Below, piece after piece: positions 17,292-38,792 of a stretch of 64,000 nucleotides of DNA (positions are counted from its first letter, which is position 1; each line of letters opens with the position of its first letter). This DNA comes from an uncultured Planctomycetaceae bacterium (GTDB taxonomy: Bacteria > Planctomycetota > Phycisphaerae > SM23-33). The DNA lies in assembly GCA_964531695.1 (NCBI GenBank), contig CAZHEH010000013.1:6000-69999 (forward strand), written 5' to 3'. The notes under the pieces are model-generated. The model did no database searches and was not told where the DNA came from. It saw nothing but the letters and a program-made list of their open reading frames with translations. The translations under genes and the position numbers were made by a program.

Positions 17292-17774
17292 GGCGGGGGC
17301 TCCGTCAACGGCGTATCGGGGGGTGTCCTGCTGCATCTTCATTATCCCCTATCGGTTGCGCCCGTGCAACGACAAAGCGCGCGATGCCGCCTCCGAACGT
17401 ACGGCGCCGTATCGTGGCATGGGCAAAGCGGGGACAGGCACGTCTCCGCCCGGACGGGCCTCCGCTGCGCTGCGTCTGGGCGTCGCTTGAGCCCGTCCCC
17501 GTTTTGCCGCCCGCGGCGAGCGCAGTCGAACCCGCCTTGCCGGCGGGCAGGCCGAACAGCGACAGGCAGCCGGGTCGCCCATCGCCACTGACAGCCGCGC
17601 GTGGCAGAACGTCTTCCAGTAGTTCGTGTTGATCAGAACGTGCCGCACCTGCCGCTTGCCCTGAACGTTCGGCACGCGTCAGCAGCAGCCGACGCGCTCG
17701 CCCGGCCGAATTCGGCTGGCGCCAGCGCAAAGGCAAGCCCCTGCAAGCTGCTTGCCTACAGGGGCTTACGTTGA

Positions 17775-17845
17775 CTGGGGATCAAGGATTCGAACCTTGA
17801 CTAACTGATCCAGAGTCAGTCGTGCTACCGTTACACTAATCCCCA
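17775..17845 (-). tRNA. tRNA-Gln (anticodon CTG)
   Basis: Manual fold of the reverse complement: acceptor TGGGGAT/ATCCCCA with U1-A72 and G73 as in bacterial tRNA-Gln; anticodon stem ACTGA/TCAGT with loop CTCTGGA; T-arm GGTTCGAATCC. Confidence 0.75.
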
Positions 17846-17967
17846 ATCGGCGGATCGTCGGCGCCGGCACGGCCGGCCCACGACTGACTCATGGGATCCA
17901 TCGTCCATACGGACGCCGACCTTGTCAAGCCCGGCAGGCATGGTGTGCCCGCTTCGCCGCCGGTAGA

Positions 17968-22529: not shown

Positions 22530-22628
22530 ACCGCCCTCCTCACCACGGAGACCCCGCAGCCGCACGCAATGCGGGCGACACCGGCACCCGGCGCCTTACA
22601 CGCCGGCGCCCGATCCAAGGGAGGGGAG

Positions 22629-22712
22629 GAAAAAGGGGACAGGCAACTTTTCCGTTCCTCCCGTCATGCCGTTTGGTGGGATGCGGTTACGGAAAAGCTG
22701 CCTGTCCCCTTT
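22629..22712. repeat. Palindromic repeat element, copy 1: AAAAGGGGACAGGCAACTT ... AAGCTGCCTGTCCCCTTTT flanking a variable 45-nt core that is itself hairpin-forming
   Basis: 15-bp inverted-repeat arms, near-identical to the copy at 43205-43286; lies between convergent genes; A-tract and T-tract flanks give a terminator-like shape in both orientations. Confidence 0.5.
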
Positions 22713-23847
22713 TAGTCAAGGCCTCATCGCGTTTCCCGAAGACGAAGCAATTGAGCCGATCGCTCCACTCGGGGCGAGCATCGCCCTTCTCGTCCAGATA
22801 CGCAAGCAGATCGTCCCGCGTCCGCCCTTGGAAGCAGTCGTGCTGCGCAGCTTCCTCACGGAATGCCCGCAAATGCGCGGCGACTTCCTTATTGCTTACA
22901 TTCTCCAGCATCCAAGTTACGAACATCGGGTCGGGACTCGGCCGGAACAATGTCATCGCGCTCCATAGTTCCCACTCGGAACACTCCCGGAGCACGAGAA
23001 CGGATGCGTCATAGTCTCGGTCGTTTTCAGCGACGGCCAGAGCTGCTTGGCAATCTCGCCGCTCGGCCAGCAGATCAACTACGTCCTTCCGGATAACTGG
23101 ATCTGGCAGCCGCATGCCCTGGATAACCATTAAGCTGATCTGGCCGGCGACTACGCCCTCGGGATCGGCCTGGGCAGCATCTATCGCATCCCTGGTGCCC
23201 CATTGCAGCAGACTCACTGTGGCATACTCGGTCACGAATTGGCGCATAACGCCTGTTGCGTCCAATCCCAACTCGCCTTCCCGGATGGCCCGAAGCATGT
23301 CTCGCGCCCAGGTACCGCGGGCGTGCCCGAGGGCCATTGCAAGACTTCGCGCATCGTCTTCTGACCTCTGCCCCAGGCGGACCAGAGCATCACGGCACGC
23401 GGGGCTGCCGCACAGGACGAGCGCAACCATCCGCTTATGGCGACGTACGGAATCGGGCAATCCGGCGACCAGCTCAGCGAATTCCTCACCACGGCCAAGC
23501 GATCGGAAGACCATGCCCGCGAGCAGAAGGTCCTCTCCCCGTTCGGCTCGCGACTCCAGCGCCGTCACCTCTTCACTGTCCAGAGCCACACGGCCATCCG
23601 AGAGATAGCGCCACGCATCCCGCGAGTCGATACTCTCAGAAGACAGACAGGAGTCTAGGTAGCGAAGCGGAAAACGCACGTTGCCGGGGTCAATGCCTGC
23701 ATCGCCTGGGGGTGTTCCGCCTTTGCTGTCTTCGTGATAATCCTTGCAGTTCAGCCTCGCCCCAACGGCCAATGCCAGAAGCAACGGGCATCCAATAAGC
23801 AACAAGGCAGTCACGCGCCGCATACGATGCATCGCCATCGCCGTCAC
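22687..23847 (-). CDS. Hypothetical secreted protein in a lower-GC segment
   Basis: Signal peptide MRRVTALLLIGCPLLLALAVGA; GC about 52-60% against a 68% background; codon usage richer in Lys/Asp/Glu; no recognised domain. Confidence 0.5.
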   Translation of the reverse strand: MTAMAMHRMRRVTALLLIGCPLLLALAVGARLNCKDYHEDSKGGTPPGDAGIDPGNVRFPLRYLDSCLSSESIDSRDAWRYLSDGRVALDSEEVTALESRAERGEDLLLAGMVFRSLGRGEEFAELVAGLPDSVRRHKRMVALVLCGSPACRDALVRLGQRSEDDARSLAMALGHARGTWARDMLRAIREGELGLDATGVMRQFVTEYATVSLLQWGTRDAIDAAQADPEGVVAGQISLMVIQGMRLPDPVIRKDVVDLLAERRDCQAALAVAENDRDYDASVLVLRECSEWELWSAMTLFRPSPDPMFVTWMLENVSNKEVAAHLRAFREEAAQHDCFQGRTRDDLLAYLDEKGDARPEWSDRLNCFVFGKRDEALTKRGQAAFP

Positions 23848-23891
23848 CTATGCCTTTTCTTAAGGGCGTTTCCGCTCACTCAGTCAGTAGG

Positions 23892-23913
23892 GCGTGCAAG
23901 CTGGCTTGCACGC
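23892..23913. promoter_or_regulatory. Perfect 22-bp palindrome GCGTGCAAGC-TG-GCTTGCACGC about 45 bp upstream of the start of the 22687-23847 gene; candidate operator or 5' hairpin
   Basis: Seen directly in the sequence; 10-bp arms. Confidence 0.3.
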
Positions 23914-24538
23914 GCAACGTACACGTCCCACGCTTCCCGAATGAATCATTCCAGAAGCATTCCGCGCGGCCCGGCGGGTCGATCCGTCCGGGCATCCCGG
24001 AGCCGCGATACTGGGGTTGGGGCTATCCGGGGACACATAACCTGTTTCTCCTTCTTCGGCTTCCGCTTGCGCTTCTTGGGCACAAGGTTCCGGCCCAGCG
24101 GCCGCCCCACGTGCTGCAGGAATGAGAGCTCGCCAGGAGGCCTGCCCGTACTCGTGGAGACGAAGCGATGCTGCACGGCCCGCTTCGTCCTCAGCCCGCA
24201 GATACTCGCGCCAGGTACACACCCACCCGGCCGGGACGCTTGTCCGGCCGTAGCCGCCAGGCGAGGCGGATACCGCTTCAGCGGGTCGGCGTCCTGTCCC
24301 TTGCGGACCTCGAGGGGCTGTGCCGGGGGCGCGCAGGTCGGTCGGCCTTGGGCGAAGCCCCGAGATGACGCGTTCCCCATCACGGCCGGGGATTATCCCG
24401 CGCACGGCCGGAATCGGCAAGTGGCAACCGCGGCCGCGCGGGCACGGGCGTGAGGATACGCCCGGGGCACCCGGCTGCTCACGGCCACGGCGCGCGCCGC
24501 TGATGCAGTCGGCCGGCCCAGCCGCTATCCTGTGTTGT

Positions 24539-27273: not shown

Positions 27274-27500
27274 CTACCGTCCCTCATGCTCCCGCAAGGC
27301 CTCCGCGAAGCGGCGGTTCACGGGCTTGTCCAGCTCGCGCTGGAGATCATCCTCTTCACACCATTGGACGTGGGCGTAGGCGTACAGGACGTTCCGCCCG
27401 TCCTCGTGATTGCCGCGGAGGTCGCAGGCGACGATGGTCGTAGCCGGCACGTCCGGGTAGCGCTCCATCGGCGGGAGGTAGAAGTAGTCGCACCGGTAGC
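27274..27500. repeat. Direct repeat unit 1 (about 225 bp, roughly 95% identical to 28210-28436) covering the 3' ends of the tandem DUF1559-like genes
   Basis: Visible near-identity of the two printed segments, including the 6 bp before the stop codon; indicates recent duplication or gene conversion. Confidence 0.7.
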
Positions 27501-28098
27501 GGCCGTCTACCAGTCCGTCCGCAAGCTGCTCGCGTAGTTCCGGGTCGGTCACCTCGACGTAATGGCCGTCACTCAGGTCCTCTTCATCGACCGACGGGCA
27601 CTCGAGGGTGTCCACGGAAATCAGACCGTGCCGAACCAGCACATGGAGCTGCTCGGGGTACAAGTCTTCATGTTCCGAGGAGTACATTACGAGGCCATTG
27701 CGGATTGAGGACAGGTTAGTAGCACACCGCGCTCGCAGCATCGGCTCCATCTGCCCATGCCTGACTTCTTGCCACAGCGCCGCGAGCGGAAAGGCCGCCG
27801 CAGCGCCCAACAGGATGGTCAAGGCCGCGAGCCACTTGCGGGGACGTGCACGCCGAAGGCCGAATACGCCTAGGACCACGGCCACCAGGGCGGCGATCAG
27901 GCCCATTTGAACGACGGCCGGATCACGGAGCAAGCCGCTGAAGCCCACCGCAAGTGCACATGCCGCAACGCACAGCAGAACCAGCGATGCAATGGCGGGT
28001 CCATTGTGCGGCAGCCGCGGAGGCGGCGCCGGTTCTGAGCCCGGCCGTGCGGGCTCATCCCGAAGCGGCTCCGGAGGTGTCGGCATTGACCCGCTCAT
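27274..28098 (-). CDS. DUF1559-like H-X9-DG protein with an atypical multi-TM N-terminus, tandem paralog A
   Basis: C-terminal ACDLRGNHEDGRNVLYAYAHVQW is the H-X9-D(G/A) motif of planctomycete DUF1559; RARCATNLSSIRNGLVMY resembles the post-pilin segment; the N-terminus has 3 TM helices instead of a prepilin leader. Confidence 0.7.
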   Translation of the reverse strand: MSGSMPTPPEPLRDEPARPGSEPAPPPRLPHNGPAIASLVLLCVAACALAVGFSGLLRDPAVVQMGLIAALVAVVLGVFGLRRARPRKWLAALTILLGAAAAFPLAALWQEVRHGQMEPMLRARCATNLSSIRNGLVMYSSEHEDLYPEQLHVLVRHGLISVDTLECPSVDEEDLSDGHYVEVTDPELREQLADGLVDGRYRCDYFYLPPMERYPDVPATTIVACDLRGNHEDGRNVLYAYAHVQWCEEDDLQRELDKPVNRRFAEALREHEGR

Positions 28099-28209
28099 CC
28101 CTTCCCCTGTTCAGTCCACGGCCAGACCCGATCGCTACCTGACGATACCGCGTGAGTCGAGACCACCGCAGAGCTTGCTGGGCACTGATTCCTGATGACG
28201 GATCGCTCC

Positions 28210-28436
28210 TTACCGTCCCTCGTGCTCCCGCAAGGCCTCCGCGAAGCGGCGGTTCGCGGGCTTGTCCAGCTCGCGCTGGAACTCGCCCTCTTCACACCAT
28301 TGGACGTGGGCGTCCGCATACAGGACGTTCCGTCCGTCCTCGTGATTGCCGCGGAGGTCACAGGCGACGATGGTCGTAGCCGGCACGTCCGGGTAGCGCT
28401 CCATCGGCGGGAGGTCAGTTCCGAATTCCGGCGTCT
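28210..28436. repeat. Direct repeat unit 2 (partner of 27274-27500)
   Basis: See unit 1; paralog B carries an extra 45-nt insertion just beyond the repeat. Confidence 0.7.
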
Positions 28437-29085
28437 CCGGCAGGGGCCGCTCCGGCTCCGGCTGCTCCGGCGGCAGGTAGAAGTAATCGCAACGGTAGCG
28501 GCCGTGGTCGTCGAGTTCGTAGTCGAGATGCTCGCGCAGCGCCGGGTCGGTCACTTCGATGTAGCGATGCGCGCCCTCTTCCTCGCGGGCCGAGGGGCAC
28601 CGGAACGTGTACATGCCGATGGTGCCCTCGCCGACGAGGTGGGCGAGATCGTCCGGGTAGGCGTCTCCGTACTCTACCTGGTACATGATAATGCCTTGAC
28701 CGATGGCATGCAGGTTCACCCCGCAGGACGACCGCATCGCCCCATCCCGCGCACGGCGGAGACCCCACATACCCACGACGGCCGTCTCGGCCGCGGCCAA
28801 GCCGATGCCGATGACCATCGCGCCGATGGCCAGCCCCTTGCCCCCGCGCTTGCCGAAGACGCACACGATGCCCAGGACCATCGCCACGCCCCCAAGCAGC
28901 ACGCCGACCAGAAGAAGCAGCGGCGAGAGGCCCAGGGCCAAGGCCAGCAACGGCACGGCCGCGGCGATCGCAAGCGCCAGGGCAACGACGGACAGGCGTT
29001 TGCTGCCGCGGGTCGACCCGCCGTATCGCTTGGCCGATGTCGAGCCACGCGCGGCCGGGGGCAGCGGAGGAGGTGTCATGCTCAT
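28210..29085 (-). CDS. DUF1559-like H-X9-DG protein with an atypical multi-TM N-terminus, tandem paralog B
   Basis: Same architecture as paralog A; last ~90 codons almost nucleotide-identical to A except for a Pro/Glu-rich 15-aa linker insertion; ORF may start at 29136. Confidence 0.7.
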   Translation of the reverse strand: MSMTPPPLPPAARGSTSAKRYGGSTRGSKRLSVVALALAIAAAVPLLALALGLSPLLLLVGVLLGGVAMVLGIVCVFGKRGGKGLAIGAMVIGIGLAAAETAVVGMWGLRRARDGAMRSSCGVNLHAIGQGIIMYQVEYGDAYPDDLAHLVGEGTIGMYTFRCPSAREEEGAHRYIEVTDPALREHLDYELDDHGRYRCDYFYLPPEQPEPERPLPETPEFGTDLPPMERYPDVPATTIVACDLRGNHEDGRNVLYADAHVQWCEEGEFQRELDKPANRRFAEALREHEGR

Positions 29086-29199
29086 GGGAGCCCCTTTCCT
29101 GTTTTTGGCAAGATGGACACGGTCTGCCCCGATCATAGTCGGACTCGGGCATGACGCAAGGCGCGAGCGCCGCCCGGGGGAACGGCTGCCGCAACGGGC

Positions 29200-30054
29200 C
29201 TACGCGCCTTGGCGCGGCTCGAACGCGTAGCCGAACTGAGACGTGTCCAGGTCGCTCGGCAGCGTTCGGTCCGTGGCGTAGCTGAACAGAATGCCCTTGA
29301 AAACCGTGTCCGCCGCGGAATTGACCGCGATGCCCAGCGCGAACAGGGCCACGGCCAGGAGGACCGCGACCAACGAGCCGGTGCTGATCAGCAGCCACCC
29401 CACGAGAATCACCGGCAACATGACCAGGAGGCCGAGCAGGCCCAGCGAGAAGTTACCCACCAGCGCCGTGCCCCACGTGTGCCGTAGCGTGCCGAGCGAG
29501 CGCTTGAACGCGGCGAACGGCCCGGCCCCCTCGAGCACGATCACCGGAACGACGAAGAACGTCATCGCGCTCCACGCAGTGCCCAGAATGGCCGAGATGA
29601 ACTCCCCCGCCCGCTTGTGGGAGTTCTCGATGAGCCGCAACAGGACGCCCACGATCGCCGAGACGAGCGCCCAGCCGATAATCGAGAACATCCGCGTCAC
29701 CGCCGCCCGCAGCCCGTAGCCCAACGAGGTCTCTCCGGTCTCCATGTATCGCAGGGCCGAGGCGATCAGCGCACAATTGAAGAAGACGATCACGAAGTAA
29801 TTGCAGAAGTAGAACACGAACAGCATCGCGTACATCGCGACGTCGCTCTCGCCCTCCTCGGCGCTCAGCCACGTGTCGATCGTCCCGCTCGTCCATAGCG
29901 GCAGGAGGAAGCTGGCGCTGACCACCAGCAGTGCAAGCCCCGAGATGATCGGGAAGATCACGAGCTTCTTGCAGTCCCACAGGATGCCATAGCTGGTCTT
30001 GGCGTATGCCCAACTTCGCGAAAGCGTTGCCCACATCGCGTTGCCCTCTTGCAA
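29200..30054 (-). CDS. Polytopic integral membrane protein of unknown function
   Basis: 6-7 hydrophobic helices and no catalytic motifs; co-oriented directly upstream of the DUF1559-like tandem pair. Confidence 0.5.
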   Translation of the reverse strand: MQEGNAMWATLSRSWAYAKTSYGILWDCKKLVIFPIISGLALLVVSASFLLPLWTSGTIDTWLSAEEGESDVAMYAMLFVFYFCNYFVIVFFNCALIASALRYMETGETSLGYGLRAAVTRMFSIIGWALVSAIVGVLLRLIENSHKRAGEFISAILGTAWSAMTFFVVPVIVLEGAGPFAAFKRSLGTLRHTWGTALVGNFSLGLLGLLVMLPVILVGWLLISTGSLVAVLLAVALFALGIAVNSAADTVFKGILFSYATDRTLPSDLDTSQFGYAFEPRQGA

Positions 30055-30268
30055 GTGCGCTTACACGGCCGGCCGCGGCCGTGCCCACGGCCCCAAGAAT
30101 ACGACTCGCCACTCGCGATGTCCAGCGCGAGCAGGCGCTGTCACATCGCCCCGGTCGACCTGCGGATGGCCAAGCCGAGACGCCCCCCGCAGCCGCCACG
30201 AGGCGGCGCCTTCGCTCTGACTGCGGATACCCTTTCCCCCGCATCTCCGCCAACCGCTCCGCCGGCCG

Positions 30269-37312: not shown

Positions 37313-37326
<14 letters not shown>

Positions 37327-37960
37327 CGCGTTCACTCGACTCAGGAAGAGGCACTTCGCGAACGAAATCCGCATGCTCCCGCAAGGGATTCTTCACAGGA
37401 ACGCCCATGGGCACGAGCACAACCTGCGTGCCCTCGCGCCGCGCGAATTTCATGGCGGGGATGAAGTCGCTGTCCCCCGTTACCAGGATCAGCCGATCCA
37501 CGATCTGCTTGGAGGCCAACCAAGCAACGTCCAGACCGATCTTCATGTCTACGCGCTTCTGGGTGAAGTCGGGCTCGAGGTCACGAGCCGTCGGATGGCG
37601 CGGTTCTCTGGCCAAGGTCCGAAGCGCCTGCTCCCGTAGCCGCCAGCCCTTGAGAAGCAACTCGCCCCGTCGGAACGCGACGCTGCTCATAACCGAGAGA
37701 CGCTGCTGCAACTTGCGCTTGCGACGTGCTACGGGGCCAGCGCCGAAGTCTATCCGTCGCCCCGGATCGAGCGGATTGCAGCCGGACTCTTCGTATGGCG
37801 GACAGTCGTAGAAGTAGATCCGGAAGAGCTCCTCGCCTTCCAGGACACACGCATGGGCGAACTGGTACACGTGTTCGGCTTCCGCATGCCGCCGGCCCCG
37901 CACAGCGTAAAGCCGCTTGAGAACAAATCCGGCATCAAGCAGCACGGCTACGTTCTTCAT
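37313..37960 (-). CDS. NYN-domain (LabA/YacP-like) putative RNase
   Basis: LILVTGDSDFIPAMKFARREG and the N-terminal VAVLLDAGF are typical of the NYN/PIN-like fold; GC about 52-58%; overlaps the holB start by 14 nt. Confidence 0.7.
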
Positions 37961-38132
37961 CGACGTGCCCCCTTGCCCCGCGCAAAAAGGATGGCCCTGC
38001 CTTGCTCTAGATAGTTCGGCGCAAGACAGAGCCGGTTATATACGCATAGCAGGCCAACATGGCCCTCACATCTTCCTATGGGATTATCGGCCGCCCTGTT
38101 TGAGAAATCAAGAAGATAAGTCAGCATTCCCG

Positions 38133-38792
38133 TCATCCCGCCGGCGGTTCATCCGGCCCTAACCGGGAGGCCACCGCCTGCCGCAGGCGATCCTGGACCT
38201 GCCCCGGCTCGCCGGAGGCGTCGACCACGACGAACCGCTCCGGCTCGCGCTCCGCCTGCCGAAGAAACAGCTCCCGGACCTTGCGGTGGAACGCCAGGTC
38301 CTTGCTCTCCATCCGATCGCGGGCCTCATGGCGTCCGGTCCGGGCGAGGCCGTGCTCGGCGTGGATGTCCAGCACGACCGTCAGGTCCGGGCCCACGCCC
38401 GGCAGCGCCGTGTTGTAGATCGCCAGGATCGCCTCGGTGTCCACCCCGCCGGCGCCCTGATAGGCGACCGTCGCGGAGACCCACCGGTCGGAAATCACGC
38501 AGCCGCCGCTCTGGAGTGCCGGGCGGATCAGCTCGCACCAAAGCTGCGTGCGGCTGGCCATATACAGCAGCGTCTCGCAGTCGACGGCCATCTCGGCGTG
38601 CTCCGTATCGAGCAGGATCCGCCGGATGCTCTCGCCGATGGCCGTCCCGCCCGGATCCCGCGTCTCGATCGGCTCAACGCCCAGCGAACGGAACCACTCG
38701 GCCAGCCGCTTGAGCTGGGTGCTCTTGCCCGCGCCGTCGGGGCCGTCGATGACGATGAACTTCCCAGCGAGCTTGTCGGCGAGGTCGGTCAC
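38133..38792 (-). CDS. tmk: Thymidylate kinase
   Basis: P-loop IDGPDGAGKST, DRW motif and LID region. Confidence 0.9.
   Translation of the reverse strand: MTDLADKLAGKFIVIDGPDGAGKSTQLKRLAEWFRSLGVEPIETRDPGGTAIGESIRRILLDTEHAEMAVDCETLLYMASRTQLWCELIRPALQSGGCVISDRWVSATVAYQGAGGVDTEAILAIYNTALPGVGPDLTVVLDIHAEHGLARTGRHEARDRMESKDLAFHRKVRELFLRQAEREPERFVVVDASGEPGQVQDRLRQAVASRLGPDEPPAG

Follow-up and report, generated by a model that had tools for sequence, protein, structure and literature searches.

Recurrent gene conversion in a tandem pair of predicted leaderless, DUF1559-like membrane proteins from an uncultured planctomycete

Introduction

Canonical DUF1559 proteins (PF07596; TIGR04294) of the Planctomycetota possess a prepilin leader (N_methyl) and a domain of 268 profile positions that includes two large insertions of approx. 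40 and 50 amino acids (aa). In Planctopirus limnophila, the family comprises 68 paralogs, two of which are essential, and its function is unknown (PMC10632474). Of the papers found to mention DUF1559, none treats leaderless forms, H-X9-DG or DUF4190 in such a setting. Concerted evolution by gene conversion is a textbook phenomenon, exemplified by tufA/tufB in enterobacteria and pilE/pilS in Neisseria. Both subjects meet in the stretch of DNA analysed here (hereafter, the window), which consists of 64,000 nucleotides (nt) of contig CAZHEH010000013.1 from an uncultured Planctomycetaceae bacterium (class Phycisphaerae) and carries two adjacent, co-oriented genes, paralogs A and B. The likeness of their 3′ ends results from recurrent gene conversion within the locus, which in the window proceeded from B to A. 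Taken as a whole, the locus is quite probably an ancient tandem pair that encodes leaderless, membrane-tethered modules, each with three transmembrane (TM) helices and a minimal DUF1559 domain, the 3′ ends of which have been converted repeatedly.

As in the textbook cases of concerted evolution, the paralogs of one genome resemble each other more than they resemble their orthologs, the shared tract has sharp edges, homogenisation extends to synonymous sites, and one gene has received a segment specific to the donor. Unlike in those cases, conversion has touched only the last approx. 155–205 nt of the two genes, and the tract stops where homology stops, at the stop codon. A and B give no sign of programmed or high-frequency variation, and silent cassettes were not found.

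Gene conversion between the paralogs

The proteins encoded by A and B are 53% identical over 228 aa. At the nucleotide level (MAFFT alignment), identity amounts to approx. 50% in the 5′ two-thirds of the genes, 68–80% just before an indel and 95% after it, and the stop codon (TAG in A, TAA in B) marks the precise point at which it falls back to background. The original prediction described this 3′ segment as approx. 225 bp long and approx. 95% identical, downstream of divergent 5′ regions; the identity and the divergence are borne out, and the segment, a direct repeat, is 205 nt long. The tract encodes the last β-hairpin, which bears the H-X9-D motif, and two C-terminal helices. The indel at its 5′ junction is a Pro/Glu-rich loop present only in B, which spans 21 aa (63 nt) rather than the 15 aa first assigned to it. 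It is flanked by a short direct repeat, ACCT(G/C)CCGCCG (YLPPE / DLPPME), occurs in a 16-aa version in the orthologs of B, and has a low predicted local distance difference test (pLDDT) score of 59–65 in AlphaFold models. No RNA-level signal was found in the tract (no Rfam family; fold z-score of -0.68). Because identity reaches 95% over 205 nt between flanks of approx. 50%, and because the pattern is repeated in an independent genome, the tract is not a chance repeat.

That genome is represented by L001 (the contig of P0004), which is 95.6% identical to the window at the nucleotide level over 18.4 kb and agrees with it in gene order: UvrB, DUF6159, B′, A′, SufD, SufC, and RecO. Both genes are present, with order and synteny unchanged, in L001–L003. 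When a genome collection (source species absent; best match 32% identity) and metagenomes were scanned, the pair came up in no other lineage, and relatives with 85% UvrB identity have no DUF6159-B-A block at the corresponding syntenic site. A tandem pair whose 3′ ends are homogenised was seen in this lineage only; as for copy number in related genomes, a check suggested in the original prediction, the distant relatives examined are single-copy and lie in housekeeping contexts. In L001, A′ and B′ are 100% identical over the last approx. 155 nt, a value that may be a little too high if near-identical copies of the repeat were merged during assembly, and just upstream their identity is approx. 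50%. In the columns of this segment, the orthologs A/A′ and B/B′ are 92–96% identical.

Synonymous sites tell the same story. According to Nei-Gojobori estimates, the synonymous divergence (dS) between A and B is 0.141 in the last 67 codons versus 1.2–1.4 outside the tract, which demonstrates that the duplication is old and the tract young. The corresponding value for A′ and B′ in the L001 tract is approx. 0, and neighbouring genes compared between the window and L001 give a dS of 0.05–0.10. Accordingly, of the recent gene conversion or duplication originally envisaged, the conversion stands and the recent duplication does not. The direction of transfer can be read from a poorly conserved, B-specific loop segment, PMERYPDVPATTIV, which is found in B, B′, and the L005 gene and is also carried by A in the window; A′ has ASPQEEEGKGVLI at that place. 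As the orthologs of B in L001 and L005 share the segment, it is ancestral to the B lineage, and its presence in A but not in A′ identifies B as the donor and A as the recipient. Moreover, the tract measures 205 nt in the window versus approx. 155 nt in L001, and such differing lengths and boundaries point to separate events, i.e., to recurrent conversion. The homology needed for conversion is probably maintained by selection.

Three other explanations of the shared 3′ end have to be weighed against recurrent conversion. A recent, possibly partial, duplication might seem to account for high identity that is limited to one segment; however, the pair occurs in equal order and synteny in L001–L003, so the duplication predates the split of these lineages, dS outside the tract is saturated, and the paralogous tracts of L001 show no difference, against 4–8% between orthologous tracts, with boundaries that vary between the genomes, which makes such a duplication extremely unlikely. 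It is equally hard to credit that purifying selection acted on the C-terminal module alone, without recombination. The C-terminal end is indeed the best-conserved part of the subfamily to which A and B belong (see below), and a protein of L012 has the same tail, but selection on the protein would leave unexplained that synonymous sites are homogenised too and that A possesses PMERYPDVPATTIV, which is missing from its ortholog. Finally, the repeat or the tandem arrangement could be an assembly artefact (a collapsed or mis-joined duplicate), a possibility already raised with the original prediction. Merging of repeat copies could inflate the complete identity in L001, and a junction seen in L005 and L006 is the expected product of an assembler walking through a shared repeat. 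Nevertheless, an artefact is highly improbable: the window copies are not collapsed, given that 10 of 205 positions distinguish them and that their flanks are unrelated, the pair has been assembled independently at least five times (ENA L001–L004 and the NCBI genome), and B has been assembled alone in another ENA contig (P0001).

The junction in question lies at positions 109–1174 of the Logan contigs L005 and L006 (SRR31660264/5), in which a B-type body passes, within the tract, into a downstream spacer of A type and SufD, neither paralog A nor the B-A spacer being present. Its origin is either an unequal crossover that truly deleted sequence or a jump of the assembler from one repeat copy to the other.

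Relationship to the DUF1559 family

When full-length B was used as a query, only six proteins were matched. In contrast, a profile of the predicted periplasmic domain yielded 290 matches, many of them already annotated with PF07596 or as ‘prepilin-type processing-associated H-X9-DG protein’, and an exhaustive HMMER search retrieved 23,017 cluster representatives at E ≤ 1e-3 and 2,698 at E ≤ 1e-10. Among 40 members of the subfamily, 31 match PF07596 (E ≤ 0.01) and 22 match TIGR04294. In a profile-profile comparison (hhalign) with eight canonical N_methyl+DUF1559 proteins, the domain aligned over 127 columns with 99.95% probability (E 1e-38), and the aligned elements comprise α1-C, the YP, CPS, and (D/S)Y.Y motifs, and NH..DG.NVLY.DGHV.W. 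The DUF1559 profile search, on which the family assignment was originally made to depend, thus falls formally short of its threshold at the level of the single proteins (the scores are given below) and succeeds at the level of profiles. Judged from these alignments, the relationship of the A/B domain to DUF1559 is real despite the sub-threshold scores.

The match of B to PF07596 covers profile positions 2–32 of 268 and the C-terminal motif. The core that is homologous to that of DUF1559/TIGR04294 proteins, which belong to the same phylum (Planctomycetota), includes α1-C (R.RE.A.R..C..N...IG.A...Y), YP, CPS, DY.Y, and NH..DG.NVLY.DGHV.W. The differences are equally clear. A and B lack both large insertions of the canonical proteins and therefore hold a minimal DUF1559 core; three TM helices take the place of the prepilin leader; and the A/B subfamily has, in addition, a C-terminal two-helix tail (FQ.EL.KP.N..FA.ALRE.EG). 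The C-terminal approx. 50 aa are the best-conserved part of the subfamily, and L047/L048 match there at 67% versus approx. 30% in the rest of the domain. Both paralogs had been credited with an H-X9-D(G/A) motif, which holds for B (H-X9-DA) and not for A (H-X9-YA), in which the Asp is replaced. The L001 orthologs have an intact H-X9-DG, and among the 40 subfamily members the His of the motif is kept in 39 and the Asp in 33.

The similarity to pilins and pseudopilins is more distant. PDB sequences gave no match in an hmmsearch with a six-sequence profile; a 40-sequence profile gave weak matches, and four of the five best were GspG/PulG (E 0.016–0.85, over α1-C and YP). When genuine GspG sequences from annotated plasmid-borne type II secretion system (T2SS) clusters were used for comparison, the hhalign alignment with the subfamily profile (80% probability, E 1.4e-5) was confined to 45 columns, from α1-C to YP. 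No significant match was obtained by Foldseek against the PDB with either the full-length or the domain-only model. A and B may resemble GspG/PulG in the alignable α1-C and Y..DN..YP segment and, in the models, in an overall plan that sets a long N-terminal helix against an antiparallel sheet, and the continuity of TM3 with α1-C in B recalls the pilin ‘lollipop’. Unlike GspG/PulG, A and B have no class III signal, no Glu5, and no adjacent Gsp machinery, their head showed no similarity detectable by Foldseek, and they are predicted to be permanently anchored in the membrane and hence unable to polymerise.

Membrane architecture and leaderless relatives

Hydropathy and AlphaFold modelling agree on three TM helices per protein, at the upper end of the two to three predicted originally. 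In the model of B (pLDDT 83 and predicted template modelling score 0.70 for the full length; pLDDT 89.4 for the domain only), the helices span residues 29–50, 56–77, and 83–138, and the last of these runs unbroken from TM3 into the predicted periplasmic domain, the rest of which consists of a sheet of five strands and then two helices at the C-terminus. TM3 is preceded by a basic loop, GKRGGKG in B and RRARPRK in A. Two Cys residues are near-invariant in the subfamily (each present in 39 of 40 sequences) and are missing together from one and the same sequence; this paired loss fits a periplasmic disulfide. The basic loops and the paired Cys suggest that both proteins adopt an N-in/C-out topology with a disulfide-bonded periplasmic head.

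No prepilin leader (G|F-T-L-[IV]-E) and no N_methyl (PF07963) match were found in A or B, and no prepilin motif was found elsewhere in the window. A reading of the two sequences for a class III signal (Gly-1, Glu+5) was likewise negative, so the cognate prepilin peptidase site that had been proposed as a check is absent. The lack of a leader had been regarded as non-canonical. Among the best 120 of the 290 matches, however, a canonical leader (G-F-T-L-V-E) occurs in only approx. 12, which are the weakest; the other N-termini consist of a zinc ribbon with DUF4190, a Pro-rich tail with DUF4190, or a single uncleaved TM helix. By this census, the leaderless, TM-anchored form is the norm of the short-domain subfamily and not special to A and B.

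A and B are most closely related to H-X9-DG proteins that carry DUF4190 (PF13828), with or without a zinc ribbon (PF13717), and occur in Phycisphaerae, Tepidisphaeraceae, and other Planctomycetota. In particular, the group with a Pro-rich tail and DUF4190 (P0008, P0010, P0016, P0017, P0020, P0030) is 35–41% identical to A and B. These proteins have in common with A and B the Pro-rich N-terminal tail, a TM hairpin, the basic loop, TM3, the short domain, and the C-terminal tail. A and B differ in having no zinc ribbon and a TM block too divergent for PF13828, which gave no match to either protein even at E ≤ 10. When the TM block was compared by hhalign with the DUF4190-bearing N-termini of the relatives, 52 columns aligned with 97.3% probability (E 2.3e-11), a score that hydrophobic, TM-rich, low-complexity profiles can inflate. 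In databases, the relatives are named ‘DUF4190 domain-containing protein’ or ‘prepilin-type processing-associated H-X9-DG protein’.

The short domain was also met in other settings. In P0130 (581 aa), it is fused to an extracytoplasmic function (ECF) sigma factor (Sigma70_r2/r4 and a TM helix); it ends DUF3352 proteins of approx. 720 aa, such as that encoded by L012:2195-4348 (717 aa, with a signal peptide and the identical tail type); and it occurs in multi-copy proteins. The short domain is thus a widely reused extracytoplasmic module. A STAS - HATPase_c_2 - STAS triplet (L009:6678-7820, L010:11612-12645) lies within 0–5 kb of the genes for P0010 and P0007, and MnmE/TrmE adjoins that for P0030 and is near that for P0007. 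Both probably reflect shared housekeeping synteny of Phycisphaerae and not a functional link.

Evolutionary rate

Both paralogs evolve fast. Between the window and L001, the nonsynonymous divergence (dN) is 0.07 for B and 0.22 for A, and that of the neighbouring genes is 5- to 70-fold lower (0.003–0.013). The dN/dS ratio (ω) is approx. 0.5 overall; when the paralogs are compared with each other over the periplasmic domain, it is approx. 0.3. Since A and B are intact in at least two lineages and ω is approx. 0.3–0.5, they are not pseudogenes but functional genes under weak constraint. The idea that A might be a pseudogene on account of its H-X9-Y was rejected: Tyr, Val, Ser, or Gly occurs at that position in other members, and ω is below 1.

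The TM block of A stands apart. Compared with L001:10091-10345, it has a dS of 1.13, a dN of 0.49, and approx. 61% aa identity, and it cannot be aligned by blastn; the codons that flank it are 93–100% identical to L001. The block has thus been replaced or is hyper-divergent relative to its ortholog in an otherwise 95.6%-identical genome. No donor for it was found in approx. 400 kb of sequence searched.

Proposed role and its alternatives

The architecture and family membership of A and B suggest that their role is most likely that of a non-polymerising, membrane-tethered periplasmic module. Each would be an inner-membrane protein with a short Pro-rich cytoplasmic tail, a DUF4190-type TM pair, TM3, and the periplasmic domain. 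TM3 would stand in place of the pilin α1-N helix and pass unbroken into α1-C, and the compact, disulfide-stabilised periplasmic domain would correspond to the minimal core of the pseudopilin-derived planctomycetal DUF1559/H-X9-DG family. With no class III signal and with a three-TM anchor, both proteins would escape cleavage by prepilin peptidase and could not be extracted into a fibre, which would make them static, membrane-tethered periplasmic modules. Because the H-X9-D hairpin and the two C-terminal helices are the most conserved elements, they may form the working or interaction surface. The 3′ part of the genes has been homogenised repeatedly by conversion, and the remainder has diverged to saturation and evolves fast.

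Several observations weigh against this explanation. B remains below the gathering threshold of PF07596 (18.3 bits for the full length and 21.1 for the domain only versus 23.3) and below the cut-off of TIGR04294 (16.5–17.2 bits versus 19), and A matches neither model. The similarity to GspG is short, and the figures for the L001 tract and for DUF4190 are subject to the inflation mentioned above. Moreover, the surroundings of the genes for P0030, P0010, and P0007 contain no conserved neighbours and no pilus or T2SS genes and offer no functional clue; likewise, no pilus or T2SS gene and no conserved neighbour hints at a function of A and B, which we infer from their architecture.

Other roles can be imagined, all of them with a low probability. 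A and B might be true prepilins with a long, two-TM leader that is cleaved at the junction between the basic loop and TM3 (in B, between GKRGGKG and LAIGA) and then assembled into fibres. In form, a basic loop that leads into Gly and a hydrophobic helix does resemble a class III signal, and TM3, with approx. 23 residues, is similar in length to α1-N (21 in canonical relatives). Yet A has K-W instead of Gly at the junction, Glu is absent at +5, the DUF4190-type relatives conserve A+2, G+5, and G+9, as in small-xxx-small packing, with no invariant Gly at -1, and peptidase or pilus genes are not found nearby. To our knowledge, no prepilin leader is known to contain TM helices. This reading is very unlikely. 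A sensor or anti-sigma-type signalling module, as opposed to a structural or binding one, is unlikely: the same short domain is fused to the ECF sigma factor in P0130 and lies behind cytoplasmic zinc ribbons in most relatives, but the cytoplasmic tail of A and B is only approx. 30 aa long, Pro-rich, and devoid of a recognisable output or sigma-binding domain, no regulator is adjacent, and the presence of the domain on secreted DUF3352 proteins and multi-copy proteins points to a generic module. It would also be conceivable, though rather improbable, that A and B are non-extractable subunits that prime, anchor, or terminate canonical DUF1559 fibres via TM3/α1-C and the C-terminal module. If so, the homogenised 3′ end would keep both paralogs compatible with one shared partner, and the divergence of the TM block of A (dS 1.1 versus <0.1) would reflect segmental exchange, loosely like the cassette recombination of pilins.

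Gene models and neighbours

The features of the locus are collected in Table 1. The maximal open reading frames (ORFs) of A and B are longer than the genes are likely to be. M5 in A and M18 in B are the likely true starts because independent gene calls of the orthologs begin there, at MPTPPEPL for A (P0004 / L001:10001-10795) and at MSMTPPPL for B (P0001, L001:9017-9877). A purine-rich, Shine-Dalgarno-like stretch (GGAAGGG / GGAAAGGGG) lies upstream of each. The NCBI call for A (P0003, 210 aa) uses an internal Met and thereby cuts off TM1; the longer form is favoured because the codons upstream of the NCBI start are 93–100% conserved at the nucleotide level between the window and L001.

Table 1. 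Coordinates of the paralogs, their parts, and other features of the window
Feature	Position	Strand	Description
Paralog A	27274-28098	(-)	maximal ORF 274 aa; likely start M5 (28086), giving 270 aa; predicted Pro-rich cytoplasmic tail, three TM helices, short DUF1559-like periplasmic domain with H-X9-YA
TM1-TM3 of A	27772-27996	(-)	anomalously divergent from the L001 ortholog
Homogenised 3′ tract, A copy (recipient)	27275-27479	(-)	205 nt, 95% identity to the B copy
Paralog B	28210-29136	(-)	maximal ORF 308 aa; likely start M18 (29085), giving 291 aa; same predicted order of parts as A, with H-X9-DA and a 21-aa Pro/Glu loop
TM1-TM3 of B	28765-29001	(-)	DUF4190-like hairpin and a third TM continuing as α1-C
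Homogenised 3′ tract, B copy (donor)	28211-28415	(-)	same segment in B orthologs (L001, L005)
Pro/Glu-rich loop, B only	28416-28478	(-)	63 nt / 21 aa; 5′ junction of the conversion tract
DUF6159 polytopic membrane protein gene	29200-30054	(-)	PF19656, 125 bits; co-oriented, upstream of B
NYN-domain gene	37313-37960	(-)	PF01936
Variable island by RecO	22595-24327		386-aa ORF, no Pfam match
tRNA-Gln (CTG)	17773-17846	(-)	sole Rfam/ARAGORN match in the window

The co-oriented polytopic membrane protein that was originally placed ahead of the pair is confirmed as a DUF6159 protein. Its gene stays next to the pair in L001–L003, and no DUF6159 gene was found around the distant family members examined (P0030, P0010, P0007). 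DUF6159, B, and A are possibly co-transcribed. A promoter-like site at 30124–30096 is weakly indicated, the scan for promoters and terminators being at chance level. No genes for an assembly ATPase, a platform protein, or a prepilin peptidase were found on either side of the locus (approx. 15–37 kb scanned), and the window contains no canonical prepilin and no other H-X9-DG gene, regular-expression matches occurring only in non-coding frames. The G+C content at third codon positions is 0.76 in A and 0.84 in B versus 0.90–0.96 in the flanking genes. A and B resemble fast-evolving accessory genes set among housekeeping genes (SufCD, UvrB, RecO).

Other parts of the window vary as well. The NYN-domain gene is located between the genes for DNA polymerase III delta′ and thymidylate kinase, in a segment of approx. 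840 nt (37330–38171) that is missing from the otherwise collinear L001 and looks like a small lineage-specific insertion. The island by RecO is replaced in L001 (L001:13829-16371) by genes for a 483-aa unknown protein and a D12-class N6-adenine DNA methyltransferase, which may reflect the exchange of a restriction-modification or defence cassette. The tRNA-Gln gene completes the list.

Implications

DUF1559 is among the largest paralogous families of the Planctomycetota (PMC10632474). The present findings leave current concepts unchanged, as A and B are ordinary, divergent, sub-threshold members of a catalogued but unstudied subfamily. They do show that a minimal DUF1559 core exists and is widely used in leaderless form, on DUF4190/zinc-ribbon anchors, at the ends of DUF3352 proteins, and in an ECF sigma factor fusion, and that the H-X9-D hairpin and the C-terminal helical tail are its most constrained part. 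It can thus be argued that at least part of the DUF1559 family does not act as fibre subunits, and the minimal core would be a good target for family-wide structural and binding studies. The locus itself is a clean natural case of segmental concerted evolution in an uncultured lineage.

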